Shown here one piece after another: positions 10,437 to 64,000 of a DNA stretch of 64,000 nucleotides (its first letter is position 1; each line of letters begins with the position of its first letter). Source of the stretch: Squalus acanthias. Its lineage: Eukaryota. The stretch lies in assembly GCA_030390025.1 (NCBI GenBank), contig CM059432.1:86988001-87052000 (forward strand), given 5' to 3'. Below the pieces are notes generated by a model that did no database searches, had not been told where the DNA came from, and saw nothing but the letters and a program-made list of their open reading frames with translations. A program made the position numbers and the translations under genes.

Positions 10437-13400
10437 GGGCTGGATTTTGTCAGTGTGGGCGGGCTGGGGCGTGTCAGGTGGAAATCGTGTCAGGACCCCG
10501 ACTCCTAAGTGATGTGTTAAAAAAGTGGGATTTTCCCCTAATTGGGCAATTGATTTCCTGCGTGTGGGAACCCCTGGCCCAATGAGTCTTTTCATACAGA
10601 AAGTCGCCTCCGATGACGTCATCAATACTGCTGGATTTAAGGCCTGCAAGCAGCCTTGCTTCTTCTGGAGACTGCAAAGGCTCTGCAATTTATATGAAGG
10701 AGTTGAATTGTGGAAAATGTCAACGATCAAGCAAATGTGTGCCCCTCGGTTTGATGAGCCCTCCCTCCAAGCTCTGGTGTACGGAGCCAGCTGTAATAAG
10801 GAGGTGCTGTTCCCTTCCTCAGGGAGAAAAAAGCCACCCCCAGTAGACAAAAGCTGTGTGGCTATAAGTGGCCCAGGAGGTCAACTCCATATCGATGAGC
10901 TGCAGAACCTGGCTGCAATGCAGGAAGAGGTTTCATGACCTTCTTCGCACAGGAAAAGTGAGTATGACTTTCCCATCACCCTCAATCTGATCCCCATCGC
11001 CTCTCCTCACCAGCGCTCTGCTTTGCCAACCTCTTCCTCCACATGCCACTTGATACTTACATCCCTGCACCCTTACCCATTCCCTCTCTCTCTATGGTCA
11101 CATTCACTTAACTATTCGACCATGCAGCCCTCACACTTCCTATCACTGTGATGCCATGACAACAACAACTTACAACACACAGGGAGGGTCCTTTGTATCC
11201 TTCTAAGCATCTATGCTACGCATTCACTGCACTCACTCCTTCATTCTCACTCAAACTCCACTTGTGTCCCTCATTGCAGGAAAAGAGAGCCCACAATAAG
11301 AGGGAAAGAGCCATGACAGGAGGAGGGCCACCCTCAGTAGCCCAGCTCACTCCCTGGGAGGAGGCAGCCCTGGAAATTGCTGGGATCGAGGAGGATACCC
11401 AAGTGGGGGACGGACAGATGGGCGCATCACAGCAAGCTGGTGACAGAATAGTTTGGAATCTCTCTCATTGACAGAGCATGAGTCACTGATAATGATTCTG
11501 GTGCTCTAACAGATTGACTTATGATCATCTGCAATATTCATTGTGCATGTAACCTTGGCCTCACATCTCTAACTCTTTCCTTTACTCCCCCACAGGACCA
11601 TCGAAAGCCCCCGTCCCCACTATCCGGGAGGAACAGCCTGAGCCTCCAGACTCCTCAGAGGAAGCTGCAATCTCTGAGGGCGCAGCGACAGCAGAATTCA
11701 ACGCACCAGCACCAGCGCAGACACTCACACCTCGGTGATACCTTCGCGTGATAGAGTAGTGTTGGCACCTGGTGTATTACAGCCCACAAGTGAGCATCAG
11801 CAGATGGTGGAGACAAGGACAGTAGTGGAGAGTCCTCGTCAGAGGGCGCAGGACTCTGCCAGCTCAGCTCCGCTGCATGTCGGCCCTGTGCCTCCGGGTC
11901 CATCCAGAAGGAGAGCAGTGCTGGAACTCCAGGAACAGGTGCAGGAGTCTCTGGCAGGTTTTGTCTCCAGGGTCGCTGCGAGTGTGGAGCGAATGGAGGA
12001 GTCCATCGCGAACATGAGCAGAGCCTTTGTGGAGGCATTGGCGCATCAACGCATCACCGCGGAAAGGATGGCAACCTCCGTGGTAAGGCTGGCTACGGTA
12101 GAGGAGAGAATGGCTATGTCCATGGAGGAGCATAGTCGCCAGGGTATGGAAAACATAGTCATTGTTCAGAATAGACATCTCTTGAGGAGCGATGGTCAGC
12201 TATTGAGCATAGAAACCAGACCTTCATGCAAGTCCTCTGGAGTAGGACTTCCAGTGCAGAAACGGGTCCTCATGGCCCCCCTGCAGTGCAGCAAGTTGCT
12301 GTCAAGCCACTTGCTAGCTCTGAAGTGGGGCTGACCCATGAGTGGGATGTTGGTGGCAGACAACAAGGAAGTGGGGGCTCCTCTCCAAGCGCTCACGTGA
12401 CCATGCCACAGCAAAGCCCTCAGTCAGAGCCCCACTAGAGTCCTCACCCAACTGAGATGGGAGTCTCAGCCCCTGCACAGCCGCAGGAGCAGCAGACTGT
12501 TGCCGAGCCCGCACAGGTTCGCCACCCCAGAGGACGCCCGCCAAAGGTGTCGAGACAGGAGCAGCAAGAGAGTGAGCAAGGGGCCTCCACATCTGCTGAA
12601 GCCACAGGGGAAGCACCACGTTGGAGCACGCGTAAGAGGAAGATAAAGCACAAGTAGTCACAAGGGTAGTCACTTGGGTGCTGTGTAGTTTTGTTTTTGG
12701 ACCAGCCATCATTGTGATTGTATTATAACGTGTTTTGATGGCAAACTGTTGAAGTTGTGGCCTGTGTCATTTCGCAAATGGGACTTTTACATTGAGGGCG
12801 TAGGATGCCTTGCGATTGTCAGAATGGTGGTCAGAGTGATAGGATTCCGCAGGTTCTTGTTCATTGTCGATGCTCTGGTAAGAAGGAGCGAGACTAAAGT
12901 GTTTGATTGTGCAGGCTAAGTAAATCTGGCCAGGATGAGTGCGTCCCTTGCATCCCGGGCAGCAATGTTGTCGCGTGCTGGTGCCTTCTGGCCTGTGAAT
13001 CTTCAGGTGGGTGACTAGCAGCTTGGCGCTCCTGTTGATGCTCCTGCTGTTGGTGCTGCTGTTGCTCATGGTTCTGCTGCTGCCGCGGCTGGTCTTCGTC
13101 CGAATCTGATGTCTAGGAGGAAAGGAATTAAATGGTCGCCATGCTTCTGGTATATGCCTCAGTTGAGGAAGCGCTCAGTCAAGGTGGGGAGAGGGGTTCC
13201 CCAGGAGGTCACACTGGAGATGGGTGTCAGGCTCCAAACTTCCACAGCAATGAGTAGGCATGCTAAAAGTTCCCCCAGACCTGAAACAACAAAGTTCTGC
13301 CACCTGCAAATGATCATTGGTGAAAATTCCTTTGTAATGGTGGAGCTGCAGCTGTTAGTAAGCAATCCACTTGTGAGGCCACCAGGATTACCTGGCGTGT

Positions 13401-13672
13401 TCCAGAGGAGGCGTGTAGGATGGGAGGAATGTGTAAAAATCAGAAAGGCCTCTCAAAATGGGATTATAGAGGCAATTAAGTGGTTGTTAAGGACCTTAAG
13501 GGCCTATCCCGCCTCTTGGAGGCGGGATGGAAAGGGGGTCAGAAAACACGCATTTGGGAAAATTGCTCGGAGGTGGGATGGAGGCGGGATCGGGCCCGCC
13601 CGCCATTTTTGGCGATTTTAACAACTCACATGCCTCCAAACCCATCTCCTCAGGGCTGGTAAAATCCAGCCC
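10437..13672 (+). mobile_element. Harbinger derivative carrying the Myb/SANT gene, transposase core deleted (3236 bp)
   Basis: Perfect 12-bp TIRs GGGCTGGATTTT / AAAATCCAGCCC; TSD TGA. Confidence 0.95.
10717..12657 (+). pseudogene. Harbinger Myb/SANT-like DNA-binding protein, 3 exons (10717-10957, 11280-11439, 11596-12657), frameshifted
   Basis: PRFDEPSL...EVLFP...TWLQCRKRFHDL followed by gtgagt; cag|EKRAHNKRE..TGGG; C-terminal basic RKRKIKHK*; GT-AG introns. Confidence 0.88.
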
Positions 13673-20306: not shown

Positions 20307-21510
20307 GGGCTGGATTTTACCAGCTCTGAGGAGGCGGGTTTGGAGGCGGGACTGCTGGCAAAATCAAAATGAATTGGAGCGGGTCCCGAACCCGCTCCCA
20401 ACCCGCCTCCAAACAATCTTCCCGGGAGTCGGGTCTCCGATTTGCGCAGGGACCCGACTCCTAGCGGCGGGAAGAGAATTATAGCCACTTAACTGCCTGT
20501 TAACAGGTACTTAACAGGCAGTTAAGAGGCTTTTTCCCATTTTGAGACTTCTGTTGCGGGCTTCCCGACATCGGGGAACCCTTCCAGGGTAAGTGTGGTG
20601 TGCTGTGGGTCTGTTGTAATGTTTGTGTATAGATGACAGCTGCAGACGTGGTGTGAAGGATCCACTGGGACACTGGTGAGTATCAGAGGTAAGGAAATGT
20701 TGGGAAAGTCATTTTTAATGTGTTTGGATTTTTCTGTAGGTGACAAGCTTTGAAATGTTTGTGTGGCCTCACCTCATTGGTAGAAGTGACAGATCGCTTC
20801 TGTAACCTCACCTGCAGCTGCCATCTGTTTTATCCTAAGGAGAGAGTCATTGCAGAGTCTGGGTGCAAGGGTTCACCTTTGTACAGTGATTGTCAGTGTT
20901 TGACAGCACCTCAATGCTGTTAAACGTATAAAATTCTGACAGGGTTAGACAGACTGGATGCAGGGGGGATGCTTCCCCTGGCTGGGCGGTCTAGAACAAG
21001 GGGTCACAGTTTCAGGATACGGGGTAGGATGTTTAGGACTGAGATGAGGAGAAATTTCTTCACTCAGAGGGTGGTGAACCTGTGGAATTCTCTACCACAG
21101 AAGGCTGTGGAGGCCAAGCCACTGAATATATTTAAGAAGGAGATAGATAGATTTCTAGACACAAAAGGCATCAAGAGGTATGGGGAGAGAGCGGGAATAT
21201 GGTATTGAGATAGAGGATCAGCCATGATCATATTGAATGGCGGAGCAGGCTTGAAGGGCTGAATGGCCTACACCTGCTCCTATTTTTCTATGTTTCTAAG
21301 TTTGCTGATGATACAAAGCTAGGTGGGACAGTAAGCTGTGAGGAGAACACAAAGGTCTGGATTTTACCTGCCGAGACGAGTTGGGGGTGAGACTGCTGCC
21401 TTCCAGGTTCTAGTCTTGCCCCCAGCGACGTCCGACGCACAGACGCTATTTTCCCCTGATTGGCCTTGTTAAGCCCGCCCTGCGGGCTTGCCGGCCAATT
21501 AAGGCCAATT
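20307..21510. mobile_element. Harbinger MITE (same family as 53848-54727) with its right end inverted
   Basis: TIR GGGCTGGATTTT at 20307 after TTT; second TIR GGTCTGGATTTT at 21354 after AAA, in the same orientation. Confidence 0.85.
20922..21296 (+). mobile_element. CR1 3' fragment on the plus strand
   Basis: ORF 20969-21208 SRTRGH...RRNFFTQRVVNLWNSLP followed by a CR1 3' UTR and tail. Confidence 0.9.
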
Positions 21511-25085: not shown

Positions 25086-25750
25086 GTTAGTGTGTGAAAA
25101 TACATTTTTAAAATCTTTTCTTATTCTACAATTTTTACACTAACTTTAAGAAGATTGAATAATCAGTGGCCTAACTAGGTTCTTCGTCATAACCATATTT
25201 ATTTTTTCACCCTGCCCTACACACGTCTCACCAGGCTTTAGCTTTGCTGTTGTGAACTGGGGTTTTTAAGATGTATACAAGAGTGAGGAGTTGTGGAATC
25301 CATATCCCACCACTTCACGATGCAGTAGGTCAATGTGCTAACAACTACAACTGTCAGCTGGTTACTTTTTTCTCATTATAAAGGTGTGCTCTGCGTGCAA
25401 AACTGCCACCTGCGTCACGCTGGTATCACAAAGTATCAAATCGAGTCCATAAAGCACTGCTCTTACTATTGTAGAGCTCAGGCGAACAGTTTACAGTGCA
25501 ATGACGAAGTTATGTTAATGTTCATACAAGTGGGGCTTGTGAATAATGAATAACTACAATGGCTACATTCTAGTCATAACCTTTCATCCTGTGATAACAG
25601 GAATATACATTAAAGTGGATACTGTGACTGGGGAACTTGAATATCCGGTGATATAAAGTTAAATTAAGACGCTCGGGAGGAAATTTGTGGGGAATTGCCT
25701 AGATCAGAAAGGAAGGCCGGAATTTTCTGGGGTCTGTGCGGGCGCGATTG

Positions 25751-26222
25751 GAAAGAAAGAAAGGCTTGCATTTATATCGCGCCTTTCACGACCACCGGAC
25801 GTCTCAAAGCACTTTACAGTCAATGAAGTACTTTTGAAGTGGAGTCACTGTTGTAATGTGGGAAACGCGGCAGCCAATTTGCACACAGCAAGCTCCCACA
25901 AACAGCAATGTGATAACGACCAGATAATCTGTTTTTGTTATGTTGGTTGAGGGATAAATATTGGCCAGGACACCAGGGATAACTCCCCTACTCTTCTTCG
26001 AAATAGTGCCATGGGATCTTTTACGTCCACCTGAGAGAGCAGACTGGGCCTCGGTTTAATGTCTCATCCGAAAGATGGCACCTCCGACAGTGCAGCACTC
26101 CCTCAGCACTGCACTGGAATGTCAGCCTAGCTTTATGTGCTCAACTCCCTGGAGTGTGACTTGAATCCACAACCTTCTAACTCAGAGATGAGAGTGCTCC
26201 CAACTGAGCCACAGCTGACACA
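25751..26222 (-). mobile_element. Deu-domain tRNA SINE, full length, nested in a Harbinger
   Basis: Reverse complement of 54733-55198; (GAAA)n tail at 25751. Confidence 0.9.
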
Positions 26223-26728
26223 GCTGGAGGTGGGGTGGGTGGGAAATTTGAAATATCTTGCAGCGGGTCGGGATCCCGCCCCCATGCGCCTTTCCCTTGG
26301 GTGCGTTTCCCGGCGTGGCAGCGACCTGAACGACAGAGGCGGGCGAGCTAATTTAAATCATTATTAGGTACTTGTCAGACACTTAAGCGCCTTTTTCACC
26401 CTACCTTTCAAATTTCACTGGATGAGCACGGGAATCACGCAGCTCGAGAACCACTTCTGTGAACCTGAGGCGGAGGTTGAGTGGCCATTGATCCACCTCA
26501 TTAGTGCACAGCATGAAAAGTACAATAAAAACTCCTACCTGACAGCTGGTCACTATGCTAAGGCAGATGCTGTTGCTGACTGCATTGTCAGCACAGATTT
26601 AGCTTTCTGGAGATTGCAAGTGTTTCCAGCAACGTCGGCATCCAGTGTCACCTCAGTGGTAGAACCTATTACACCATTGACAGATTGCTTCTGTCGGCTC
26701 TACTTGACCTGCCATCTATTAGATAAGC

Positions 26729-27900
26729 ATGGGTGCCATTTATACTCTCTCACCTTGGTCCTCAGAATCGGACCACGATGAGCCCCAACACCAGCAGCAC
26801 CAACAACAACACCATCAACCTTCTCCTCAACCACCTGATGCTGCACAGGACAGAGGGCATCAGCATGGGGCTGCACTGTGCTGGAGGCGATACCCCCAAC
26901 ACAGGGCATACAGGAGGAGGATGAGCTTCCTCACCATGACGGAGTAGCTGTGCCAAAGGAAGCTCAGGGTATTGCTTCAGGTCATTGCAGACATTTGCAC
27001 ATTGCTGGAGGAAGACCTGCAGCCCAGAGGAGCTGGTGGACATGCCTTACCAGTGGCTGTCAAAGTCACCAGCGCCCTCAACTTCTTCACTCAGGCTCCT
27101 TCCAAGGATCTGCATCAGACATTTGCGGCATCTCGCAGTCGGCCGCTCACAGATGCATCACACAGGTCACTGATGCCCTCTTTGACAAGTTAGCCAATTA
27201 TATGAACTTTGCCACTGATGAAGCCAGTGTTACTGAGCGGGCGTTTGGCTTTGCCGCTCTGGCTGGCTTCCCAGGGATGCAGGGCATCATTGACTGCATA
27301 CATGTGGCCATCAGGGCACCCCATCATCACCCAGGAGTCTTTGTGAACCGCAAGGGCTTCCACTCCCTCAATGTGCAGCTCATCTGCAACCACAGGAAGA
27401 TCACCATGCATGTGTGCACCAAATTCCCTGGCAGTTGCCATGACTCTTTCATCCTGCGCCAGTCCACCCTCCTTCAGCTCTTTGCTCCTCCAAACAGACT
27501 TCCCGGCTGGCTGCTTGGAGACAAGGGCTATCCACTGAAGACGTGGCTCATGACACCCTTGAGGAGGCCAAGTACTGAGGCCCAGGAGAGATATAATGAA
27601 AGCCACATTTCCACCAGATAGGCATGCTGAAAATGCGCTTTAGATGCCTTGACAGATCTGGAGGAGCATTTCAGTAAGCACCAGCCAGGGTCTCCAGAAT
27701 CATCGTGGTCTGCTGTGCCTTGCACGACATAGCGCAGCAGTGAGGATTACCGCTGCATGAGGAGCAAAGCTCTGAGCACACAGCCTCTTCAGAGGAGGAG
27801 GAGCATCAGCTGGAAGATGAGGAGGAGGAGCAGGAGGAACCTGCAGTCCAGATCCCACCAGCACCTGAGCACATTGCTGCCCGGGAGGCCAGATTTACTT
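26729..27900 (+). pseudogene. Harbinger DDE transposase (HARBI1-like), disrupted
   Basis: [26 protein letters not shown] and GDKGY present; a small deletion removes the IEQT segment with the catalytic Glu; stops and frameshifts. Confidence 0.93.
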
Positions 27901-29350
27901 AACTTTATGTATTACACCCATATGGCTGCCACATGCTGTGCCAGATTGGCACCACCCCACAGCAACACCTTAAAGCATCTCTACAATGACCAAGCCATTC
28001 CTTTCACACTGACCACCATTGCTGGGGGTAACGTTATGTCTCACCATTCACTCCAACTCACTAAGCCACTTCCAAAGGTGCAGACAAATTTGTCCATGAC
28101 CAGAAAGTGCTGAAAATAAAGATTTTTATCTGTGACATCAGAGTAACGGAAACTTTACAGAAACATTAAATAAAACACCCAAGTGGCTACCCTTGTGAAT
28201 CTACTTGTGTTTCATCTTTCTCTTATGCGTGCTTCTATAAGCTGCTATCCCTGTGGCTTCAGCAGAGGTAGAGGTAGCCTGCTCACTTCCCTGCAGCGCC
28301 TGCACAGACCCTTTTGGCAGACGTCCTCTGGGTTTTGGAGCCTGTGATGGCCCCGCCTGCAACTGTGCAGGGGCAGACTCAGCCATCGTGATCCGAGGAG
28401 GCATCTGGGGCTCTGACAGAGGGGTGGGGGGGCAACGGGGGAGAAGTGTGTGCGCTTGGAGAGGAGCCCCCACTTCCATGTCCCCTCTCACCATCATCCC
28501 TCATGGGCCACCCGCACTTCCCTGCTAGCAAGGAGCTGGAGAGCACCTTGCTGCACAGCAGTGGGGCCATGAGGACCCACTTCTACATTGACTTCCCTCC
28601 TAGAGAGGACGTCTATGAGCCTCTGCCATCTATTCTCCATAGTTAGCCATCTATTTCCCATAGATAGCCATCTATTCTCCATAGAGACCATGTGCTCCTG
28701 TGAGTGGCGCATTAACTGCTACATGCAGGTGGCCATCCTTTCCATGGAAGAGCCTACAGTCGCCATTGCCTGCGACACGGTGGTGCTCATGTTGGAGATA
28801 GAATCCTCCATTCTCTGCACATTTGCAGATATTGCGGTTGCAAAACCTGTCAAAGCCTCCTGCACATCTTGCTCCACCTCCAGGATTGTCCTCTTTCTGG
28901 ATGGCCCCCAAGGCTCAGCGTCTGCATACAACTGAGCAGAGCTGGATGCATCCTGTGCCCTCCGGCGAGGAGTCTCCACTGCTGTCCCTGTCTCTACCAT
29001 CTGCTCTTGCTCACTTGTGAGTTGCGAGACACCAGGTGACAACACTACTCTAGCTCGCGTGGGACCCACCGAGGTGTGCGTATCTGTGCTGGTGCTGGGT
29101 GCGCTTATGTCTGGTGACGGTGCGCCCTCAGAGGCTGGAGGCTCCTCTGAGGAGTCGTCTTCCTCTTCCTCCTGGACAGTGGGGGGGTGGGAGAGGTGGG
29201 GGTGGGGGGGGGGGGCTCTTGATGGACCTGAGAGAGAGTAAAGAGATGAGTTAGCTATGTCATATGAAGAATGGGTACAGATACCATTATGCACATGATG
29301 AACGTTCACTGGCTGCTGACATCAGTGCCCATATGAGTGACTGATGTATG

Positions 29351-30860: not shown

Positions 30861-30885
30861 CCATGTAGCTATACGATATGTAATT

Positions 30886-31180
30886 AAAAAAAAAATTCAT
30901 TAATGGGTTATGGGTGTCGCTGGCAAGGCCAGCATTTATTGCCCATCTGTAATTGCTCTTGAGAAGGTGGTGGTGCGCCGCCTTCTTGAACCGCTGCAGT
31001 CCGTATTCTTAGCATACTTCTTTGTAGCAGTTTGGCACAACTGATTGGCTTGCTAGGCCATTTCAGAGGGCAGTTAAGAGTTAACCACATTGCACTGTGT
31101 CTGGAGTCACATATAGGCCGGGTAAGGATGGCAGATTTTCTTCCCTAAAGGACATTAGTGAACCCGATGGGTTTTTACAT
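30886..31180 (-). mobile_element. 5'-truncated SINE-like element sharing its 3' tail with the Zenon-like LINE
   Basis: 30886-31003 matches the LINE 3' end at 53210-53330; 31004-31180 does not match the LINE. Confidence 0.7.
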
Positions 31181-37826: not shown

Positions 37827-37999
37827 ATTAAACCCCAGATCCCCGTTGCTCACCACATCCCCATCATTCCATCCCTGTCACAGGCCATATCACAGCACAA
37901 AGCTGAAATGAGACACACCACAAAAGAATCCAAACTGAATGAATAAATTTATCAATAATAAGTGAACACATATTTACAACAAAAATATTAACTATTTAC

Positions 38000-44801: not shown

Positions 44802-46630
44802 TAGTGGAGGGGCTTTGAGGGGGTAAGGGGCTGAGCCAATCTTTGCAGATTACCTATGATGTTGATATGGTTGGTCTAGTTAACCATCTGGTTAATGGTG
44901 ACCTCCAGAATGTTAATGGTGGGGTCTCAGAAATGGTAGTCCCCCACAAGGTCAAGGGGAGGTGGTAGGGCTTTCCCTTGTTTGTGGTGATCATTACCTG
45001 CCATTTGTCAGCCCAACCCTATATGATATGTAGGCCCTGCTCTAGGCTGGCATGGGCTGCTTCATTATTTGAGAAGTTGTGAATGGGGCTGAACACTATG
45101 GAATCATCAGCAAGGGAAGGTCATTAATGAAGCAGTAGAAGATGGCAGGGCCAGAGATGCTTCCCTGAGGAACTCTTGCAGAGATTAACCTCTGATAATG
45201 GGGAACGGCTAGCTCTGTTGCACAGGTCTTCACTATTTTAGCCAAGGCCCATAGTCTTTGTTGTGTCCAGTCACACAGCTGCTGATTAATGCTACCTAGA
45301 GTGAATCAAATTGGTTGGACATCGGCATCTGTGATACTGGAGACCTCAGAAGGAGGTTTAGTAGAATTTTCACTCAGCACGTTTGGTTGATGATACTTGC
45401 AAACACTTGTCTCCTGCACTCACTGCTGGGTTTCACAATGGTTGAGCAAGGATGTTCATGGAGTCTTCTCCTCCCATACCTGGTTGTCCACCACAGTTCT
45501 CGACTGGATGTGGCAGGGCTAAAGAGTTTTGCTGAGATCTGTTGTTTCAGGGACCACTCAGCTCTGTCTATAACTTTAATTCTCCGCTCCACTCCCACTC
45601 TTACTTCTCTATCCTCTGCATCCTACACTGTTCCAATGATGCTCAATGCAAGCTCAAGGAACAGCACTTCATCTTTCTATTAAGCACTTTACAGGCTTCC
45701 TGCCTTAACATTGAGTATAATAACTTTAGATCTTAACCACCCCTCCAATTTCTCGGACAGCAGGTGCTGGTAATGGAGGATGCTGCACCAGAGTCACTGG
45801 GAGTGGAGGAGGTGTGGGCTGGTGCTTGGGGTGGGAATCCTTTATTGGTACATGCCTGATGGGCTGGTTCGTCTCTCTGGGGTCTACCCACCTTTCTCCG
45901 CCACATTCCCAGGCCATGGGAGCCTTCTCCTCTTTGCCAGATTTTCCATTCTGCTGTAACCATTTACACCTCCGATAGACCCATCTTTTGTTTTTTTACT
46001 TGCCCCATTATAATCCTCTTTTGCATTGCACCATCATCCCTTTTGTCATTTAATCACTCCTGCCCTCTACCCTATCACAGACCATCCATTTTGTTCGCCC
46101 CGCCTTCCCCACTTTTCCCTGGTTCAGTACTTGCTTAAAAACTGTGAGGGGGAAAAATTTGGTTGGGTAGTGCCTCCCGTTAGTGCCTCCGGGGGGGGGG
46201 GGACTAATGGGGCGCTAGGAACTTAGCGCCGAGCGTGGCGATTTTAGCGCCGCTCGCGAAATTGACCGGTTGCTTTGCTCTGCCGCTAAACACTACTGCC
46301 ATGATCTCCTGCGCCCGCAGATCATGACGTCATTTGAGCGCGTAGTGTCCCGGACCGGAAATTGAGTCGCGCCCCCTGCCTCACCGCCTACCACTAGGAA
46401 AAACAGGTAGAGGGGAAACGTTTTCAAGTCGGGAAGGGGCTGGGGAGCGCTGTTTAAAGGCGGGCACTTCCTGCCTTTTCTTGTCAGCAACATTTTTGGT
46501 ACACGCAGGTTGAGAGGGAGAGAGACTTCTGGAGAGATTTGACGCTGTCCTAAGGAGTTTTGGGTCCTGAGCACCACTTTTGAGGTTAATATTTATTTGA
46601 CCTTCATATTTCCCATATTTAGAAGATTAA

Positions 46631-47799
46631 ATGGGGGCTGTACTAACTCGGGGTGTCGTCGCCCAGCTTCACCTTTGGAGGCAGCAGAGGCGCAGAGAGA
46701 GAGAGTGGCAAATGTGGCCAGAGGGAGGAGGGCCAACAGGCCTCTGCACAGGAGACCTTGCCCTCCCAGGGTATTCAGGGAGCAATTCTCTTATATCCAT
46801 TTGTCAGAGGAGCAGTGTTTGCGCAGGCTGTGCTTCAGCAAGGAGGTGGTCACTGAGCTCTGCCACCTCCTGCAGCCAGATCTGTAGCCTCAGCTCAGGA
46901 CCAGGACGTCTCTGTCGGTGGCAGTGAAGGTGATGGTGGCTTTGAATTTTTATGCCAGTGGCTCCTTTCAGGCTTCTACTGGGGACATCACCAATATCTC
47001 CCAGTTCGTGGTCCATTGTTGCATTCGGGAGGTGACAAATGCCCTGTATAAAAGGAGACGCCAGTACATCTCTTTCCCCATGACCCGGGACAAGCAGCGC
47101 GAACGCGCATGTGGCTTTGCTAGGATAGCGGGCTTCCCCATGGTGCAGGGCGCCATTGACTGCACGCATGTGGCATTGCGGGCACCGCATGAAAACGCAT
47201 AGGTGTTCCGAAACCGCAAGGGCTTCCACTCTTTGAATGTTCAGTTGGTCTGTGACCACAGACAGCTCATCCTCGCCGTCAATGCCCGCTATCCTGGCAG
47301 CAGCCACGATGCTTTTATCCTGCGCCAGGCTGGTGACGCAGACCTCTTCCAACCACCGCGTCAACCTAGTGGATGGCTCCTCGGGGACAAGGGTTACCCA
47401 CTCTGCACCTGGCTGATGACACCGCTCCGTAACCCCAACTCCCCTGCCGAGCTGCAATACAATGAGAGCCATAGCGCCACCAGGAACCTCATAGAGCAGA
47501 CGATCGGCATCTTGAAACAACGGTTCCGGTGTCTGGACCACTCAGGAGGAGCCCGGCAGTACTCTCCCGAGCGAGTCTCCCTTTTCATTGTTGTGTGCTG
47601 CATGCTGCATAACATTGCGATCATGAGGACCCAGCCATTGCCACCAGGGATTGGTGCACCATCTGAGGAGGAGGAGGAAGAGGGAGAGGAGTAGGAGGAG
47701 GATGAGGAGGAGGATCAGCAGCACCAACGTGGGAGGGAGGCGCACAATGTTGCCACTGCAAGGACCATCCGTGAACGGCTCATAAGACACTGCTTCTAA
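46631..47799 (+). pseudogene. Harbinger DDE transposase (HARBI1-like); one N-terminal frameshift and three in-frame TAG stops
   Basis: ORFs starting 46597, 46918 and 47203 share a frame; GAIDCTH, GSSHD, GDKGY and IEQTIG are all present. Confidence 0.95.
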
Positions 47800-48093
47800 C
47801 CTTTACAGAGAAGATGGCTTCTGGAATGAAGAAGCACATCATCAAAAGCATCCTGCACCCTCTATTGCCGGGCAAAGTTGCAATGAGTCAAATCAGCAAA
47901 GATGTAAAGTAAGAATAAAAAAAATTATTTATATTGCAAACTCTGTGTCATTTATTCAGTACAAACAATTAGAAACAAACCCAACAATTCATGAACTAAC
48001 AAAACTTGTTCTCACAACATGGATATAAATGGCAAAACAGTCAACAAATATAATAACAACAACCTCGAACTTTCCCACAAACATTCCCCCCAT

Positions 48094-49994
48094 TTATTTA
48101 CAGATTCTACTTTTTGCCCTTCGAGGGTGATCTCCCTCCCCTTCGCACTTCCCCACTTCCCACCCTACTGCTCCTCCGTAATGTGGCCCTAGTGGCTGCA
48201 GCAAAGCTGGCGGAAGGCTGCTGAATGTCGGTTCCAGAGACTGCAGATGTCTTGAAGGACGCCCTCGACCAGCTCTGGGCCTGGAGGGCCCGGCTGCAGA
48301 CTGCACCAACTCTGCATGGGCGGCAGCAGTCTGGGCTGGCTGGGTTACAGGCTGTGGCAAGTGCAATGGGGACATGGCAGTGGTGGGAGCAGAAATGCTG
48401 TCATCCTGAGAGAGGACAGCACCTTCCTGCTCAACCGACACACTGCCACTCCCTCGTGGCAGTACCTCAGCATCTGGAGCAATCTGCTCGAGCACAGATT
48501 GCTTGCCTGCTGCGGTACTGTGAGATCCCCGGGGGACTGTGGGCAACCCAGCGATGATGGCAGCAGTCAGTGCTTGCATGACATCAATCTGGGACTGCAT
48601 GAGAGCAGTCTGAGATTGGATGGCACCAGCCAATGACTCAATTGCAGCACTAAGCCGTTGCGTCTCGTCAGCCTGTGCTGCAATAGATCCTGCCACCTCA
48701 CCCATTACATGCAGCATGGGCCGTGGTTCACAACGGTCTCCCTGCAATTCAACCATCCTCTGCAATGAGGCAAGGATGGGTTCAAGGGTTTGCGCACAGA
48801 TGACAACTGTGCTGGCGGCGGACTCCTCCACGCTCCTAGCCAGTCCATCCATGCTGTCGGGCACCCTTGATATTGCACCCATGAGCTCCGTATGCATGCT
48901 CTAGGCCTGGGTATTCATGGCCGCGATGCCGAGGTCCTCATCCGAGTCCTGTGCAGCAGGACTCACTTGCCTACTCACCCTCCGGGGAGATGGCCCCCGA
49001 GCTTCCCTACCCCCATGGCGTTGCTGCAGCCCGCTGGATCCAGGAGCTTCACCCACATCAGACCCTAACCCCCCACTCCCCTCCAGGGAAGTCGTGGCCC
49101 CAGTGTTTGATGTGTCACCCTCGGGACACGCAGGCGGTGAGGTGCGGGCTTCGTCTTCCTCCTTGTCTGGCGCGTCGCTGCCGCTGGCAGGTTGAGGGAC
49201 AGGCTGGTCAGCTGGTGGTTCACTATCTGAAAGCAGGAAGGTACAAGAGTGGCTTTAGCATGAGGGCAGGGGGGCAAGAAGGGAGCAAGGACTGGAGACA
49301 GTTAGTTGGATTGAAAGTGTAAAAAGCTGGTGTTGTGAGGGGCAAGTGGTATGAGAGAGGAGAGAAAGCTGATGAACATACCATTGCTGTCCACAAGGGG
49401 GTCGACCTCTCCAGTGGCCATGTTACCGATGACCTGGCTGGCAACGATCCTGTGGACTCTGTCCTCCAACTCAGTCAGTGGGTGTAGGTCCGCCGGTCCT
49501 CCTCCCGTGCGTTGCTGCTCCCGTCTGTTATGAGGGAGCTTGGCCTGCAAGAAAAAGGACAGCATCTGAGTGAGTGTGCAGCCATGTGTTTGGCTGATAT
49601 GCCTCTCAAAGTTGAATAGCCACGAATGTGTGCAAGGTGTGGAATGTGCAGGTGTGTTTTATGAGATGGCCATAGGTCTTGGATGAGTGTTGGGCATTTG
49701 GGTTTTTAAACCGTCTGGGCACAGAGTGAAGTTGAGATGGAGGGATGTAAAGGTATTGAAAAGCAGGTACTCAGCCTGACCACCCGAGTGAGGTCGTTGA
49801 ACTTCTTCCGACATTGGGTGTGGGTCCTTGGCACCAGGCTCCTGGAGGAGACGTGCTGAGCCACCTCCCTCCACACCATTCTAAACTCCCGGAGCAATGG
49901 CCTCCTGCCACTCTTTGGGAACAGCACTGCCCGTCACAGAGCCACCAATGCCTTGTCGCTGAATTGCCTAGCTCTTTCTCTGGGCCTCTCCATT
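48094..49994 (-). pseudogene. Harbinger Myb/SANT gene, 3 exons; intron 1 donor mutated (ctgagt)
   Basis: WREVAQHVSSRS...THTQCRKKFNDL; AKLPHNRREQQRTGGG; long Ala/Gln-rich helical exon 3 (ORF 48094-48897). Confidence 0.87.
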
Positions 49995-50344
49995 ACTGCT
50001 TCTAAGAGAAACTTTAAAGACAGGTCTGTCGAGGTCTAGATTCAAGGCTGCCCAGCAAGATGGCCCCTCCCCTTTAAGAACTGGACGGCGCCAGTCTGTC
50101 TGTCTTCCATGGTAACTGACATTGCTTGAGCGTTCTGAGGTAGTGCCTTGCTCACCGACGCTTACGCCTTAAGAGAGGTGTGTAGCACCTGATTTAGCGC
50201 TCAAATCACCTCCAGGGGCGATAGAGGCCAATTTTGCGTCGGTGTCGATAATTAGTGCCGGGCACTAAACTTTGCACCCGGCCGATATTAGCGCCCCAAA
50301 ATGGGCGATACCCAATTTTTCCCCCTTAATCTCCAACATCTTCC

Positions 50345-50377
50345 AGTTCTGATGAAAGGTCATCGATCTGAAATGTT
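50345..50377 (+). ncRNA. Minimal type-I hammerhead ribozyme motif of the Penelope terminal repeat (degenerate; stem I 3' strand displaced to 52538)
   Basis: agtt-CTGATGA-aaggtc-atc-gatct-GAAA-tGTT [insertion] aact. Confidence 0.7.
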
Positions 50378-52534
50378 GGCCGGAATTTTCCCATTGGAGA
50401 GTGTGGGGGCGATTTTCTGATGTCGGAGGAGGCGGGTTTGGAGGCGGGAAAGGCGGGAAAATCAGAATCGAAGAGATCAGGTTCAGAACCCGCCTCCAAC
50501 CCGCCTCCGCGGGATTTTGCTGGTGCCGGTTTTGGAGGTCGGGAAACACTCACGCCTCCAGCTGGCAATTGCGCTATTAAAGATCCTTAAATGCTCGTTA
50601 AGGGCCTCTCTAAGCCTATTCTGAGAGGCCCTCGTGATTTTTCCAGCATTTCGGTGTGATCCACGCACCTCCTAAACCAGGCCAGGTAAACCTGGCGGGT
50701 TGACTCGTGGGTGGCCTCCTCACAGCTGCAGGTCTAACAAGACATCGTTTATTGCAGCAAGGATTACTTGCAGGTGCCAGACCTTCGCTTTAAAAGGTCT
50801 CTGAGCACTTTTAGAAGGCCTTCCGAAGTCGGAGGTGCTGCAGCTTGACTCCATCAACTGTGGGACTTCCTGGGAAGACCCTCTCCCCGCTTGCAATGAG
50901 CGCTTCCCCAAAGGAGGCATCTACAAGCAGCACGGGAACCATTCGTTTTCTTTCTGCATCGACCTCAGATGAGGATGAGGAGGAGGAGGAGGATCTGGAG
51001 GAGGTGGAGCAGGAGGAGGTCAGAGCGTTGGCGTATCGACCAGCTGCAGTGGCAGCACGCGAGCATATGGCTGCCCGGGATGCAAGGGATGAACTTATCA
51101 TGGCCAGATTTGCATAGGTTGCCCAAGTTGGCGCCATCCTAGGACATCATTGACAATGGACATGACTCTCTGGCCTCCTTTCACTCAGGCCACCAACCTG
51201 ACAACGCAAGTGTGGCGGTGCTCGCAATGTGGAGCTGCCTAAGGTGAAGGAATAGATGGCATAACGCCAACATTTTGGCTTCAAATCATTTTAATGCTTT
51301 CAAACAGGGATGGCATTTCATCAATACACAGAAACAATCTCCCTATCTGCACACAGATCTGGAGGTTATATTCCTTGCCAGCTGTACCCACGCTGCCTTG
51401 GTTTCTTTGGAAGGCCTCTTCCTCCGAGATGAGTGGAAGAGCATCTCCATGCTAGCTGTCACCCCCTCCAACAACATTTGCAGCGCCTCATCCGAGAGCC
51501 TCGGGTAGGCCCTTGCCTTGGAATTGGACATAGTGGTTTCTCAAAAGATGTTGGAGGTGGTGCAGGAGATGCAGAAATGCTGTGGAATGAGCCAAGGTAG
51601 CAAGAAGCCATAAAATCAGACTGGAAAAGTGCTGTCAACAGAGGCGAGTTTCAGTCCCAAAACACTAATTGAGCAAGGGCATCCCACACCTCTGAAATCA
51701 AGTGGTCAATCATGGGAAAATCGCAAATTTTTGAAACCTATCAGTGGAGGCGAGTTTCAAATCCACCCAAACTGAAACCCACCTCCATCTCACCTCCAGT
51801 GGGAAAATTGCCCCCTGTCAGTGGTGGTTAGTCAGATGGGGATATGAGTAGGTACATAGAGAGAGGGATGGGTGCACCTGCAAGGTAGGTTGGTGTGAGG
51901 AGTGATGTGCAGGAGTAGGCTTGGGAAGGCAGAGTGATGGGGTTGGGGTGACAAGCACATCAGGATGTAGTTGAATGTGACATTGCATTCACCTTTCCTG
52001 ACCTCATGAGATCATTAAATCTTTTCTGGCACTAGATCCAGGACCGCCTTATGACATCTCTGCTACTGACCTCCTCCGCGGTCTCCAGCCATGCTCTCTT
52101 GGTGTCTCTAGCTGGTCTTTTGCGCCCATTTGCAGGGAACAGGACCTCCCTGCGTGCTCTGACCCCCTGGACCAGCACTTCCAGGGAGGCATCAAGGAAT
52201 CTGGGCGCAGCCTTCTGTCTGTGTGACTGCATAACCCACACAAATCTTAGCGATATGCAGCAATTTCTACATCTCCCAAACATCTTTATCTCTCCTCCGA
52301 CAACGTTCAACTGGGATGTGTGCAAGGCTGCTTTAAATATCTGTGTTGAAAACGAGTCATCGGTGACGTCAGTGGAGCCGCTCCATTAAACTGGGCCGGG
52401 AAACCCGCATGACTTTCAATTGATGTGATTGAGTTAATCGCACAGTGCACAGCGCGCTGTTAAAAAGTTCGGGATGGCGACCCGCTACACGGCCCGCACG
52501 CACCCACCCCGACACTCAGGTAAAGATTTCGGCT
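50378..52534. mobile_element. Harbinger deletion derivative (Myb exon 1 + intron 1 on minus strand)
   Basis: Left TIR GGCCGGAATTTT, degenerate right TIR, TSD GTT/CTT; APRFLDASLEVLV...EVLFP at 52032-52230. Confidence 0.8.
50405..51815. mobile_element. Harbinger derivative nested in another Harbinger
   Basis: TIRs GGGGGCGATTTTC / GAAAATTGCCCCC; TSD TGT; fused transposase termini (~50930-51117) and a Myb exon 1 piece (51343-51531, minus). Confidence 0.92.
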
Positions 52535-53209
52535 CTTAACTCTGTTTCTTTCTCCACAGATGCTGCCTGACCTGCTGAGTGTTTTCCAGCATTTTCTGTT
52601 TTTATTTCAAATTTCCAGCATCTGCTGTATTTTGCTTCTGTCTATAACTTGCTGCTTTTAGTCTTTAGCATGCAGGTAATCCTGTGTAACTGCTTCACTA
52701 GGTTGATACCCAAGGTATGCCTGATGCTAATTCTGGCACATCATTCTACATGCCATATTGAACTTGTCATAATTCAAATATGTCTGGAATTACTCAAAAT
52801 GACCTTCCCCCATTCCTGTCTCTTCCCAGCCCAGCCAAGCCCCCACTTTCATTCTCTCTCTCAATCCCAGATATGTTTTCCCAGCCCAAGCCACCACTTT
52901 CTTCTAGCTCAGGCAGTCTTTCCCAGCACCTGCAGCAGCTCCCAGAGAATTTTTTTTAGACAGATACAGAGATGATAAGAAGAAGTGTGTGAGAGGCATA
53001 CAGAGACAAAGAAGGGAAGGGGTAGACATAAAGGAGGCAATTTTAACCCTGCTGCAGAAACCTGGTGGGTGGGCAGTTAAAATCGCCCTGGATTTTACCT
53101 GTCCAAAAGCCGCCATGATCGCAACATCTGCAATTTTAACCTGCTCTCCTGAGCAGGCAGCAAGGATATGCGCCCTGAGCCAACAGGGTCCTTCTTTACA
53201 TATGCATGT

Positions 53210-53582
53210 TTTTTTAAATTCGTTTTTATGCGATGTGGGCGTCGCTGGCAAGGCCAGCATTTATTGCCCATCCCTAATTGCCCTTGAGAAGGTGGTGGTG
53301 AGCCGCCTTCTTGAACTGCTGCAGTCCATGTGGTGAGGGTATTCCCACAGTGCTGTTAGGTAGGGAGTTCCAGGATTTTGACCCAGCGATGATGAAGGAT
53401 CGGCGATATACTTCTAAGTCAGGATGATGTGCGACTTGGAGGGGAACCTGGAGGTGGTGGTGTTCCAATCCATCTGCTGCCCTTGTCCTTCTAGGTGGAA
53501 GAGGTTGCAGGTTTGGGAGGTGCTGCTGAAGAAGCCTTGGCGAGTTGCTACAGTGCATCTTGTAGATGGTACGCACTGCAGC
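53210..53582 (-). mobile_element. Zenon-like LINE 3' fragment
   Basis: TIYKMHCSNSPRLLQQHLPN matches ORF 606-1112; A-rich tail. Confidence 0.88.
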
Positions 53583-53847
53583 TCAATGACATCATTGAGA
53601 CCCGACTGTAATTTTAACTCAGGCCCGAGTGGGGAATCCACATAGAGTTAAAGTGTGGAAGACAGATAGAGAAATAATTAGCAAATGGCAGAAAATCATA
53701 GCCAGTTACTGGAATGGGGAGAGGCAATTTTTTTAAATCTTTGTCTGAACACAGTGTCATGGAAGATGAACCATATATAATGTTGTACTGTGTCACTTGG
53801 GAATCAACACAAAAAAATCAAACAAGTTGACCTAAGCCTGAACTTAT

Positions 53848-54727
53848 GGCCATGATTTTGCAGGCGCTCAGAGGGCGGGTTTGGAGGCGGGTCAGAGGTT
53901 AAAGTGCTATTGATTGATGGCGGGTTCCGAATCCGCCGTCAACCCGCTTCCAAACAACCTTCCCAAGTGTCGGGTCCCCGATTTGCAAATGGACTCGACA
54001 CCTAACGGCGGGAAATGGATTAAAGGCAATTAACTGCCTATTAACAGGTACTTGTCAGCAGTTTTCAGGCTGTTTTTCGATTTTCCAGCTTCTGGGTCGG
54101 GTTTCACGACGTCCGGACAACACGCCAGGTAAGTGTGGCGTGTTGTGAGTCTGGTCTGATGTTTGTGGAATGATGACAGCTGCAGAAGTGGTGTTAAGGA
54201 TGCAATGTTGCACATGGTGAGTTTCAAGGGCAAAGAAAATGTTGGTTACTGCATTTTTAATGCATATACAGATTTCTTTAGCTTACAAGTTTTTAAATCC
54301 AACTGTATGTCCAGTGCCACCTCATTGGGAGAACCTCTCTCACCAGTGACAGATCGCTTCTGTCATCTCACCTGTAGCTGCCATCTATTCCAGCATATGG
54401 AGGGAGTCATTGGAGAGTCTGGGTGCAAGAGTTCACCTTTGTGCAGTGATTGTCAGTGTTTTCAACACCTCAATGCTGTCAAACACTGAAAAATCAACTG
54501 TCAAAATAAAATTGTGCATGGTCCCTTTAAGGAAACCAGCAGATGACGCATCATCAAATGACATCATCAGACCTGCTTCCTGTTAATTGGCTGGTAAGTA
54601 GGGCGGGCTTAACAAGGCCAATCAAGGGAAAATCACGTCTGTGGAGCGGAGGCAGCTGGGGGCTGGACCGGAACCCGGAAACCATCTGACCCGTACCCAT
54701 CCCGATACCGAGGAGAAAATCGCGGCC
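53848..54727. mobile_element. Harbinger MITE, 880 bp
   Basis: TIRs GGCCATGATTTT / AAAATCGCGGCC; TSD TAT. Confidence 0.9.
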
Positions 54728-54732
54728 TATTT

Positions 54733-55198
54733 GTCAGCTGTGGCTCAGTGGGTAACACTCATGCCTCTGGGTCAGAAGGTTGTGGGTTCAAGTCCCACTC
54801 CAGAGACTTGAGCACAAAAATCTAGGCTGACACTCCAGTGCCGTACTGAGGGAGTGCTGCACTGTTGGAGGTGCTGTCTTTTGGATGAGACATTAAACCG
54901 AGGCCCCATCTGCTCTCTCAAATGGACATAAAGAACCCAAGGCACTATTTCAAAGAAGAACAGGGGAGTTATCCCCGGTGTCTTGCCAATATTTATCCCT
55001 CAATCAACATAACAAAAACTGATTATCTGGTCATTATCTCATTGCTGTTTGTGGGAGCTTGCTGTGCACAAATTGTCTGCCACATTTCCTATATTACAAC
55101 AGTGACTACACTTCAAAAGTACTTCATTGGCTGTAAAGTGCCTTAGGATGTCCGGTGGTCGTGAAAGGCGCTATATAAATGCAAGTCCTTTCTTTTTT
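54733..55198 (+). mobile_element. Full-length Deu-domain tRNA SINE (SacSINE1/AmnSINE1-like)
   Basis: Pol III A box TGGCTCAGTGGG, B box GGTTCAAGTCC, Deu-like core, T-rich tail. Confidence 0.9.
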
Positions 55199-61617: not shown

Positions 61618-64000
61618 GCGCTCGATTTTGCCATTGGTGGCGGGTTGGGTGCAGGTCAGGTGGTCGGTGGGTCCTGATCCCACCTCCGCTGTTGGGCGGG
61701 AAAAAATTGTGATTTTGCCCTAATTGGGCAATTGATTCCCTGCGTGTGCGAACCCCTGGCCCAATTAGTCTTTTGGGACTGAAACTCGCCTCTGGTGACG
61801 TCAGTTCTCCAGCTGCATTTAAGGCCTGCAAGCAGCTTTGGTTCATTTTGTTCCTATGTTCTTCCACAGTCACACCTGCTTGAAGTCTTTGCTACTGCTG
61901 AAATGTCGAGCTCAAGGGCCAAAGCCTCACCACGATTCGATGATGACTCCCTCCATGCTCTGGTGGAGGGAGCCAGAGTTCAAAAGGAGGTGCTCTTTCC
62001 TTCCTCTGGGAGGAAAAAACCTACCCAGCAAACCAAAGCTGTGTGGCTGCAACTGGCTCAGGAGGTGAGCTCCAGATCGATGTGCAGCAGAACCTGGCTG
62101 CAGTGCCGAAAGAGGTTCAATGACCTTGTCCACACAGGAAAAGTGAGTAGACCATCACCTTTACCCTCATTCTGCTCTCAATCTCCTCTCAGCACCAGCA
62201 CTCTGCATTGCCAACCTACTCCTACACATCCCACTTTATCCTTACATCCCTTGCACCCTTAAACATCCCTCTCTCTCTATGTACACAATCACTTCACTAT
62301 TCGACTATGCAGCCCTCACACTCCCTATCACTGTGATGCTATGACAACAACTAACAGCACACAGGGAGGGCCCTTGGTCTTGGCACCTCACTCCATCTTT
62401 GTCTCCTTCTAAGCATCTATGCTATGGATTCTCTACACTCACTCCTTCATTCTCACTCAAACTCCACTTGTGTCCCTCATTGCAGGAAAAGAGAGCCCAC
62501 AATAAGAGGGAGAGGGCGACGACAGGAGGAGGGCCACCCTCAATAGCCCAGCTCACCAATGCATAGGAGGCGGCCCTGGAGATTGTGGGAGTGGAGGAGA
62601 ATGCGCAAGTGGGGGACGGACAGATGGGCGCATCACAGCAAGCTGGTGAATGAATAGTTTTGCATGACATTGCATGAGTGACTGATAATGATTCTGATGC
62701 TCTAACAGATTGACTTATGATCATCTGCACAATTCAATGTGCATGCAACCTTTATCTCACATGTCTAACTCTTTCCTTTACTCCCCCACAGGACCATCGA
62801 CAGCCCCCCTCCCACTGTCCAGGAGGAAGAGCCTGAGCATGAAGACTCCTCAGAGGAACCTGCAACCTCTGAGGGCGCAGCGTCAGCAGAATTAAGCGCT
62901 CCCAGCACCAGCGCAGATATGCACACGTCGGTGGGGCCTTCGGGAGATAGAGTAGTGTTGTCACCTGGTGTATCACAGCTCACAAGTGAGCATCAGCAGA
63001 TTGTGGAGACAAGGACAGCAGTGGAGAGTGCTCGTCGGAGGCTGCAGGACTCTCCCAGCTTGGCTCAGCTGCATGTGGACCCTGTGCCTCTGGGTCCATC
63101 CAGAAAGAGAGCGGTGCTGGAACTCCAGGAACAGGTGCAGGAGTCTCTGGCAGGTTTTGTCTCCAGGGTTACTGCGAGTGTAGAGAGGATGGAGAAGTCC
63201 AACTCTGGAAAGGTTGGCGATGGTAGAGGAGAGGATGGCTACGGCCATGGAGGAACTAAGTCGCCAGCGTCAGGAAAACATGGTGAATCTTCAGAATAGA
63301 CTGACATCTCTGGAGGAGCGATGGGCAGCTATTGAGCAGAGAAACCAGAGCTTCATGGAAGTCCTTTTGAGTAGGACTGCCAGTGTAGATACGGGTCCTC
63401 ATGGCCCCACTGATATGCAGCAAGGTGCTGTCAAGCCACTTACTAGCACTGAAGTGGGGCTGACCCATGAGAGGGATGTTGGTGGCAGGCAACAAGGAAG
63501 TGGGGGCGCCACTCCAGGTGCTCACACTCCCCAGCCACTAAGTAGCCCTCGGCCAGAGCCCCACCAGAGTCCACACCCAACTGAGATCGGCGTCTCAGCC
63601 CCTGCACAAAGGCAGGAGGAGCAGACTGTTGCCGAGCCCTCACAGGCTCACAAACCCAGAGGAGGCCCGCCAAAGGTGTCAAAGCAGGAGCAGCATGAAA
63701 GTGAGCAAGGTGCCTCCACATCTGCTGAAGCCACAGGGGAAGCACCATGTAGAAGCACGTGTAAGAGGAAGATAAAGCACGATTAGTCACGAGGGTAGTC
63801 ACTTGGGTGTTATGTTCTGTTGTATTTATTTTTTGTCACAGCCATCCTTTTGTGCATTGAATAAACAGAGGTAATGGCAAACAGTTGAAGTTCTGTCCTA
63901 TGTGATGTGGGAAATGAAACTTGCACATTGAGGGCTTAGGGCGACTTGCATTTGTAATAATGGTGGTGAGATTGATAGGAATCCACAGGTTCTTGTCCAT
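61618..64000 (+). mobile_element. Harbinger element of the same family as 10437-13672, runs off the window
   Basis: Degenerate TIR GCGCTCGATTTT; colinear similarity to 10437-12860. Confidence 0.9.
61903..63786 (+). pseudogene. Harbinger Myb/SANT gene, 3 exons (61903-62142, 62486-62645, 62792-63786)
   Basis: Exon 1 is an open 80-codon MSSSRAKASPRFDDDSL...TWLQCRKRFNDL; TAG in exon 2; frameshifts in exon 3; ends KRKIKHD*. Confidence 0.9.

Follow-up and report, generated by a model that had tools for sequence, protein, structure and literature searches.

Two Harbinger Lineages in the Window

The DNA analyzed here, which we call the window, is a 64,000-nucleotide stretch of the Squalus acanthias genome (GCA_030390025.1, contig CM059432.1, positions 86,988,001 to 87,052,000 of the forward strand; coordinates below count from its first letter). 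It contains 12 decayed Harbinger elements, eight of a lineage that we call A (A1 through A8) and four of a lineage B (B0 through B3). Counting the inserts nested in them, the 12 elements cover 45% of the window; LINE fragments and other repeats are also present. Each lineage repeats its own short word just inside its terminal inverted repeats (TIRs), and these words are probably binding sites of the Myb-like protein that the elements encode. Elements were bounded by a TIR and a 3-bp target duplication, using TIR scans and the flanks. The 10 element positions listed in an initial annotation of the window all prove to be TIR starts; two elements, at 33404 (B0) and 50378 (A6), had been overlooked.

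Among the lineage A elements, A4 (25715-32372, + strand; duplication GAA) retains both genes: a transposase (26852-27791, +; Pfam DDE_Tnp_4, 85 bits) that is interrupted by stops and frameshifts, and Myb exon 1 (31837-32061, − strand; PF13873, 31.4 bits; helix 3, RTWVQCHKCFNDL). It has received a SINE-like repeat (25749-26220) and, in the Myb gene, a LINE (about 29350-31184), which is flanked by an unusually long duplication of 120 bp (29231-29350 and 31184-31303; 92% identical). A8 (61618 to beyond 64000, +) is represented by its Myb-side part and continues past the window; its Myb exon 1 (61903-62148, +; PF13873, 33.8 bits) is open over 82 codons. In A2 (10437-13672, +; duplication TGA), Myb exon 1 (about 10717-10960, +) is frameshifted, and a remnant of the transposase region lies near the right end, which has a motif cluster at 13508-13604. 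A6 (50378-52534, +; duplication GTT/CTT; Myb exon 1 at 51990-52220, −) is a derivative inserted in a high-copy repeat, and it hosts a second derivative, A5 (50405-51815, +; duplication TGT; TIR GGGGGCRATTTT), whose Myb remnant (51346-51513, −) has lost helix 3. The part of A6 to the left of the nested A5 is only 24 bp long. A1 (2961-3701, +; 741 bp; duplication TTT) is a non-coding deletion derivative of an A2-like element, with CCCGCC five times at its left, transposase-side end and once at its right. A3 (20307 to about 21510, +; duplication TTT; motifs at 20333-20471) is a non-coding derivative within a LINE, and its right end (TIR at 21354) has been inverted along with a LINE fragment (inversion, 20922-21510). 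Its relative A7 (53848-54727, +; duplication TAT; motifs at 53874-54012) is an 880-bp derivative that lacks a Myb gene.

In lineage B, B3 (46148-50325, +; duplication TGA/TTA) has a broken transposase (about 46678-47784, +; DDE_Tnp_4, 109.6 bits) and a Myb exon 1 that carries a deletion (49775-49981, −; RTHTQCRKKFNDL). B1 (36168-39837, +; duplication TTT) is similarly organized, with a broken transposase at 36657-37808 (+) and Myb exon 1 at 39264-39488 (−; RTHTQRRKKFNNL). B2 (40894-43149, +; duplication CTT) has lost most of its transposase; it has B-type ends (TTAGCGCC at 40914), the right one poor in B words, and a Myb remnant at 42450-42635 (−; TTWLQCPKNLHDL). B0 (33404-34958, −; duplication CAT; TIR GGCCTAGAAATT) is a derivative without transposase that has B words at its right end and Myb exon 1 at 33484-33708 (+; RLVGQCRKKFNDL).

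In both lineages the transposase and Myb genes are convergent. Myb exon 1 was found in A2, A4, A5 (less helix 3), A6, A8 and B0 through B3, and is missing from A1, A3 and A7; all three near-full transposases are broken by stops or frameshifts. Ten of the tabulated elements have both of their ends in place, and their 3-bp duplications are identical in eight and differ by one base in two. The flanks of both lineages follow one pattern, A-N3-[3-bp duplication]-N3-T, position −4 being A in 11 of 12 and position +4 being T in 10 of 11. We compared four of the 22 listed runs over 46050-54850, noting that contig depth is not copy number. Related sequence fills all 30 bins of this region in the four runs, with 45,201 to 364,327 records in each, and the sequences are therefore abundant repeats; the uninterrupted form of the A6 host repeat (joint 50375-52536) is present in all four.

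By their features the elements belong to the PIF/Harbinger (PHIS) superfamily. DDE_Tnp_4 exceeds its cut-off of 24.8 bits in two of the three transposase pieces scanned (A4 and B3); the second gene encodes a Myb/SANT trihelix protein, with PF13873 above cut-off in four of five Myb exons scanned and no match in that Pfam scan for the B2 remnant; and the ends are 12-bp TIRs beginning with G/A, accompanied by a 3-bp target duplication. Han et al. (2015; PMC4482050) set groups by duplication, with TWA for PIF/Harbinger in the narrow sense, CWG for NuwaI and C|TNA|G for NuwaII. Among 11 elements, TWA appears on just one side of B3, CWG in none, and TNA in two (A2 and B3), neither with the C and G flanks, so the window elements lie outside all three of these groups.

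Each Lineage Has Its Own End Word

Words were counted in up to 300 terminal bases on both strands, for 14 A ends and 8 B ends, against 300 dinucleotide shuffles; the 24-bp left end of A6 was excluded and the left end of A4 was read across its SINE. CCCGCC occurs 33 times in A ends (shuffle mean 3.0, maximum 10) and once in B ends (mean 2.0), and TAGCGC 11 times in B ends (mean 1.1, maximum 5) and once in A ends (mean 0.7). In the terminal 200 bp, CCCGCC reaches 11.2 per kb in A ends and 0.6 in B ends, against 0.3 to 0.4 in interiors and outside, while TAKYGCC reaches 10.6 per kb in B ends and is absent from A ends, against 0.3 to 0.5 elsewhere. The initial annotation had described GGCGGG/CCCGCC-rich A ends and B ends that repeat a TAGTGCC-type word; the letters of the stretches it quoted (50428-50508, 46168-46250 and 50190-50296) are correct, and the motif discovery that it proposed, performed as an unbiased ranking of 6- and 7-mers, returns the same two words. 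For lineage A the enrichment holds overall but not at every end that it listed: those at 10437 and 61618 are Myb-side ends with one and two copies, and 26 of the 33 CCCGCC lie in six transposase-side ends.

Site tables give the A word as WWCCCGCC (31 sites), mostly followed by TCC, and the B word as TTA(G/T)CGCC (24 sites, allowing one mismatch), which includes TTATCGCC. Both are found in either orientation, within about 110 bp of the element end. In the transposase-side cluster of A5 (50428-50508), GGCGGG stands at 50431, 50443 (12 bp on) and 50452, and CCCGCC at 50489 and 50500 (11 bp apart). The transposase-side cluster of B3 (46168-46251) has sites at 46168, 46181 (13 bp on), 46211 (inverted), 46224 and 46245, and an inner TIR-like copy near +110; its Myb-side cluster (50190-50310) has sites at 50217, 50253, 50261, 50289 and 50304, and an inner TIR core at +90. 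Read inward, the first two sites are GGAGGCGGG in A, spaced 12 bp, and TTAGCGCC in B, spaced 13 bp; the two pairs point opposite ways when written on the CGCC strand. As in zebrafish Harbinger3_DR, a short motif is repeated subterminally at both ends, sparsely at the Myb side of A and the right end of B2. The TAGTGCC of the initial annotation is a CpG-decayed form of the B word: at 50238-50267, other copies from run X1 show GGCGATAA and TTAGCGCC in place of the window's GTCGATAA and TTAGTGCC (74 records).

The TIRs also differ between lineages. Their outer bases, which had been taken as a lineage mark, do not hold as one (A5 begins GGGGGC and B0 GGCCTA); positions 7 to 12 alone separate A (RATTTT) from B (RAAATT). 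The Myb-side ends repeat the TIR core further in, at +92 to +93 in six of eight A ends and at +90 to +92 in three of four B ends (for example at 10528, in the 61710 region and in the 50236 region). This inner core, some 90 bp inside the Myb-side end, is possibly a second transposase site.

One other reading of the words is that they serve host transcription factors (Sp/KLF GC boxes, E2F) at two inward promoters, or were passively amplified. The cores of Sp/KLF and E2F sites are presumably similar to GGCGGG. A ends contain GGGCGG 10 times, the E2F pattern TTSSCGSS (PMC5950925) occurs nine times in A and three times in B, and MITEs, short for miniature inverted-repeat transposable elements, are known to spread host motifs. 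The ends, however, hold no full GGGGCGGGG box, the nine E2F matches compare with 31 CCCGCC, and the E2F pattern does not fit TTAGCGCC. Most copies of the words are located between the TIR and its inner copy, while CRE-like words are found from +161 inward and the majority of CCAAT words past +100. Distant Harbingers have unrelated words at the same places (see below). We therefore regard host-factor sites as very unlikely. Inward of the motif zone, at +161 to +198 from the ends, we did observe TGACGTCA-like and CCAAT words, which are likely promoter elements; in A they are at the Myb side (A2, A4, A6, A7 and A8) and in B mainly at the transposase side (B0 through B3).

Subterminal DNA aligns within each lineage (z mostly 2.5 to 16, a few pairs lower) and not between lineages (z −2.3 to 2.8). 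In a leave-one-out comparison of the four end classes, motif columns are 0.69, 0.57, 0.63 and 0.52 identical and other end columns 0.58, 0.47, 0.52 and 0.43, a modest difference of about 10 points, taken without a significance test. These data bear on another view, in which the transposase is what binds the words, or they arose neutrally when DNA was locally duplicated in the ancestor of each lineage, and their tie to the Myb type is linkage alone. Ends are homologous within a lineage, so that counts across copies are not independent and A versus B is one contrast; transposase and TIR split the same way, and the transposase has a predicted helix-turn-helix (PMC9710019). Yet the words occur in both orientations, at both ends and at set distances from the TIR, their conservation modestly exceeds that of the flanks even though CpG decay has acted, and the only DNA binding reported for the superfamily in PMC9710019 is that of the Myb protein. 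We judge this view highly improbable.

Myb and Transposase Genes Divide Alike

In a Myb tree of 36 rows and 79 columns, five A copies and seven shark proteins form a clade (support 98/94), and B0, B1 and B3 join the predicted protein P0013 (89/84). B2 is a long branch without a resolved place, nearest P0003. A mixture-model tree (77 rows, the A5 row being in the wrong frame) gives the B side 93/79. In an approximately unbiased test of B2 joining A, the best tree already places A and B2 opposite B0/B1/B3 across the 89/84 branch. Lineage B may be a grade and the B word the older state. Identity between A and B Myb domains is 22 to 42% (20 pairs). In the transposase tree, which was built without named reference families, B1 and B3 fall in a clade (98) without A4; they are 76% identical to each other and 54% and 56% identical to A4. 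The comparison of phylogenies that had been suggested thus finds both genes separating A from B in the same manner, a congruence already reported for Myb and transposase of fish Harbingers (PMC9179366). The end word matches the Myb clade in all nine window copies with a Myb remnant, a single contrast in which the B clade is weakly supported; because that contrast was inherited as a block, the congruence shows descent and not binding.

The nearest proteins of both genes are from sharks and rays. They are elasmobranch predictions in RefSeq and UniRef called "HARBI1-like," "MYPOP-like" or "NAIF1-like" (P0003, P0007, P0008, P0013, P0165 and P0192), host-gene names that come from automatic annotation. 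The B transposases are 77 to 80% identical to P0165 and the A4 transposase 62% to P0192, and the Myb domains fall in the same clades as the predictions. A word-based homologue search with the A8 exon, a weak search, returned nothing among longer proteins, and a profile search did find relatives. Sequence searches of the PDB found no relative, and a transposase search of viral contigs gave 0 loci. We found no earlier description of lineages A and B, of lineage-specific subterminal words or of shark Harbingers in the open literature, subscription journals and Repbase lying outside this search; a survey that reported no Harbinger in the elephant shark called for other cartilaginous fish to be examined (PMC9179366).

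The Recognition Helix Is Nearly the Same in A and B

The initial annotation distinguished the lineages by a TW (A) or TH (B) in the Myb domain. Its lineage A string, TW.QCRKRFNDL, occurs exactly in A8 only, and three of the A elements that it listed (A1, A3 and A7) have no Myb gene. On the A side 10 of 12 sequences have W65, on the B side 2 of 9, and the marker fails at B2 (TTWLQ) and B0 (RLVGQ, neither form), both of which have B ends. W versus H consequently does not set the motif, and both W65/H65 (B2, B0) and the outer TIR bases (A5, B0) were rejected as lineage markers. The B2 domain, whose TTWLQCPK had been called intermediate, has TTWLQ and is closest to P0003 (RTWIQ, 45%), yet the element carries B-type TIRs and TTAGCGCC. 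W/H aside, motif and wider Myb clade still go together.

An AlphaFold model of A8 exon 1 has a confidence (pLDDT) of 86 and three main helices. Its nearest fold is the Drosophila Zeste DNA-binding domain (PDB 5cqq; Z 9.4, root mean square deviation [rmsd] 2.6, 72 residues aligned), and the GT-1 trihelix also matches (2jmw; Z 7.6, rmsd 4.4, 68 aligned); identity to the two is 15 to 17%, and a common fold does not give the DNA word. Residues 8 to 78 of the model align to TRF1 379 to 430 (Z 5.8, rmsd 1.9, 52 aligned). TRF1 meets its bases with R380, V418, K421, D422 and R425 (PMC5737604), which, read off the alignment end points, would fall on Myb positions 9, 66, 69, 70 and 73. Every sequence has K70 (12 of 12 on the A side, 9 of 9 on the B side), N73 is found in 11 of 12 and 6 of 9, R69 and N73 are the majority residues of both groups, and position 66 varies within both. 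On this model the likely base-reading residues of helix 3 are common to A and B. Steadier differences are at position 71 (R/K), at 78 to 79 and in the N-terminal arm, where P10 marks 12 of 13 A-side sequences and R/K is found on the B side at position 10 in six of eight and at position 8 in six of seven.

The initial annotation proposed that each Myb protein binds its own word only, and that these orthogonal pairs alone keep the lineages and their MITEs from cross-mobilizing. Each word is indeed nearly absent from the ends of the other lineage, none of the 11 both-ended elements mixes an A end with a B end, and the identities between A and B (Myb 22 to 42%, transposase 54 to 56%) are well below those of rice Ping and Pong, which do cross-mobilize (62% and 77%; PMC2836001). 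Nevertheless, K70 and N73 are largely shared and the W/H marker breaks. The TIRs differ too at positions 7 to 12, and in mPing each TIR base matters (PMC9921582). All derivatives here stem from deletions in an element of the lineage to which they belong, and every model would predict that their two ends match. Ping and Pong open reading frame 1 (ORF1) proteins and transposases function in mixed pairs (PMC2836001). Strict orthogonality thus seems unlikely to us, and the Myb-motif pair cannot be singled out as a barrier because the window offers one contrast; isolation of A from B, if there is any, could equally rest on the fit of TIR and transposase or of Myb and transposase.

Distant Harbingers Have the Same End Plan and Different Words

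A transposase scan of metagenome contigs confirmed 83 loci; the 80 listed form 33 clusters, with best segments 27 to 60% identical to the query. None of the 80 is recognizably of shark lineage A or B. The Myb domain could be read in 14 loci, and 13 ends were located from 9 loci, those without recognizable ends being dropped. All 13 ends follow the same plan, in which a TIR is accompanied by a short word in repeated copies and by an inner copy of the TIR core, about +74 to +100 (seen in L004, L008, L014, L016, L027, L036 and L063). The words are GTCGTACG in L004, L008 and L027; TGCGTACG in L014 and L016; GTCGCAAA in L006; CCCGGTAA in L036 and L067; CCGGTTAA in L054; and TCAATTAA in L063. Exact cross-counts are almost all zero; in the 13 ends the A word of the shark has one exact match and the B word none. 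Since each of these distant lineages has its own word, a lineage-specific end word is general in Harbingers.

Where the Myb gene is readable, changes in helix 3 at positions matching 66, 70 and 73 accompany a change of word. L004 and L027 have the same word and the same helix (RTEK(S/A)VKKKWTDM), and in L016 (RSIDGVKKKWYDT) and L063 (RTNKEVKIKCQNM) word and helix both differ. In these sequences close helices are paired with overlapping words, as A and B would be expected to show. One locus, L054 (39-3676), is an apparently complete Harbinger, with an open transposase of 441 codons and a second open frame of 398 codons that has no match to the shark Myb profile.

A Proposed Reading: Myb Sites with Overlapping Preferences

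Taking the evidence together, we favor, with some confidence, an explanation in which two related Harbinger lineages of an elasmobranch radiation left the decayed copies in the window, the 8-bp words are Myb sites, each protein preferring its own with some overlap, and several barriers act between the lineages. That the words are Myb sites, co-diverged with the protein by descent, is its best-founded part and in our view very probable. A preference of each Myb for its own word, with overlapping preferences, is somewhat probable. In such a scheme the CGCC found in both words would be read by the shared helix-3 face (R69, K70 and N73), the fixed TTA of the B word would be read by the N-terminal arm of B, which is the more basic of the two (R-x-R/K-R in B, A-A-P-R in A), and the Myb protein on its subterminal word would bring in the transposase, as is known for Harbinger3_DR. 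Cross-mobilization of A and B would probably be weak, through site, geometry, TIR core and transposase jointly and not through the Myb-motif pair alone.

Harbinger3_DR supplies the closest precedent. Its Myb protein attaches to a subterminal motif of 9 bp and also binds the transposase, which it carries to the nucleus (PMC9710019, PMC2836001, PMC9392472), the only case of DNA binding shown in the superfamily according to PMC9710019; a domesticated fish MADF protein also binds DNA (PMC11893794). Like A and B, zebrafish Harbinger3_DR and Harbinger3N_DR have DDE transposase and Myb/SANT genes, a short TIR, a repeated subterminal motif and a 3-bp duplication (PMC9710019, PMC2836001, PMC9392472, PMC3016246), and the Harbinger3_DR target, AAACAC-CWG-GTCTTT, shares with them A at −4 and T at +4. 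It differs in its 9-bp motif with demonstrated binding and its CWG duplication; duplications in A and B are variable.

Several points weigh against this explanation. The window is one independent phylogenetic contrast, with TIR core, subterminal DNA, introns, Myb and transposase inherited together. The exact A word is sparse at A Myb-side ends (0.4 per end), and the right end of B2 holds few B words. Four contiguous bases would be shared by two GC-rich 8-mers by chance in 17 to 25% of cases, and we accordingly rejected the shared CGCC as evidence of homology. The residue mapping depends on range end points of the TRF1 alignment of Z 5.8, database proteins entered the residue-column table without DNA context, and the distant words were chosen from the same ends in which they were counted, so that only the off-diagonal zeros inform. 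Lastly, no promoting internal sequence common to rice mPing and mPong was found (PMC9921582). Reading the words as Myb sites is nonetheless likely and conventional, the pattern being what descent and the known mechanism would predict.

Other genomes also house paired lineages. Rice Ping, Pong and mPing are, like A and B, two coexisting two-gene lineages with non-autonomous derivatives (PMC2836001, PMC9921582), but Ping and Pong are closer to each other (ORF1 62%, transposase 77%), have the same TIRs and cross-mobilize (PMC2836001); the distance between A and B is greater, their TIR cores differ and their subterminal DNA cannot be aligned. In Caenorhabditis inopinata, Turmoil1 and Turmoil2 are likewise two Harbinger lineages in one genome, and their MADF-only derivatives resemble B0 and A6 (PMC13668399). 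Mobility was proposed there, in general terms, to hinge on compatibility of proteins and terminal recognition, and the paper uses "subterminal" once, in its introduction (PMC13668399). One Turmoil lineage is active (PMC13668399), whereas all A and B copies examined are decayed.

A and B, whose end words contrast sharply although their recognition helices are almost alike, offer a small, direct test of how Myb specificity changes and of whether such change separates transposon families. A bolder version, possible but doubtful, would take Harbinger ends as a readable protein-DNA code, each lineage displaying its own Myb site repeatedly next to the TIR. Myb sequences tabulated against end words across whole genomes would then yield the specificity code of the Myb_DNA-bind_5/MADF family, including orphan domesticated members, and shark A and B would record a natural switch outside the base-reading face of helix 3, through the N-terminal arm and the inversion and re-spacing of sites, giving two mutually blind two-component transposons in one genome. 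Should the code generalize, target words could be predicted for domesticated Myb genes and non-cross-reacting transposon tools designed.

Other Observations

A Myb clade of P0005, P0006, P0009, P0010, P0015, P0016, P0019 and P0020 (99/94) is the sister of lineage A. P0005, P0006, P0009 and P0010, from rays and sharks, have short branches, and some members of the clade combine TW with KK; the P0005-type clade is probably a domesticated gene. Short-branch transposase clades spread across sharks and rays (P0192/P0203; P0200/P0206/P0207; P0188/P0195/P0196/P0199/P0211/P0212; P0170/P0174) suggest further domesticated HARBI1-like genes. P0001 and P0002, from Pristiophorus, are predicted proteins with two or three tandem B-side Myb domains.

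Elsewhere in the window, a weak remnant of the transposase N terminus lies at 7773-8024 (E 0.001 to 0.02), for which no element ends were found, and a C-rich tandem array with units of about 29 to 35 bp occupies 43447-44448.

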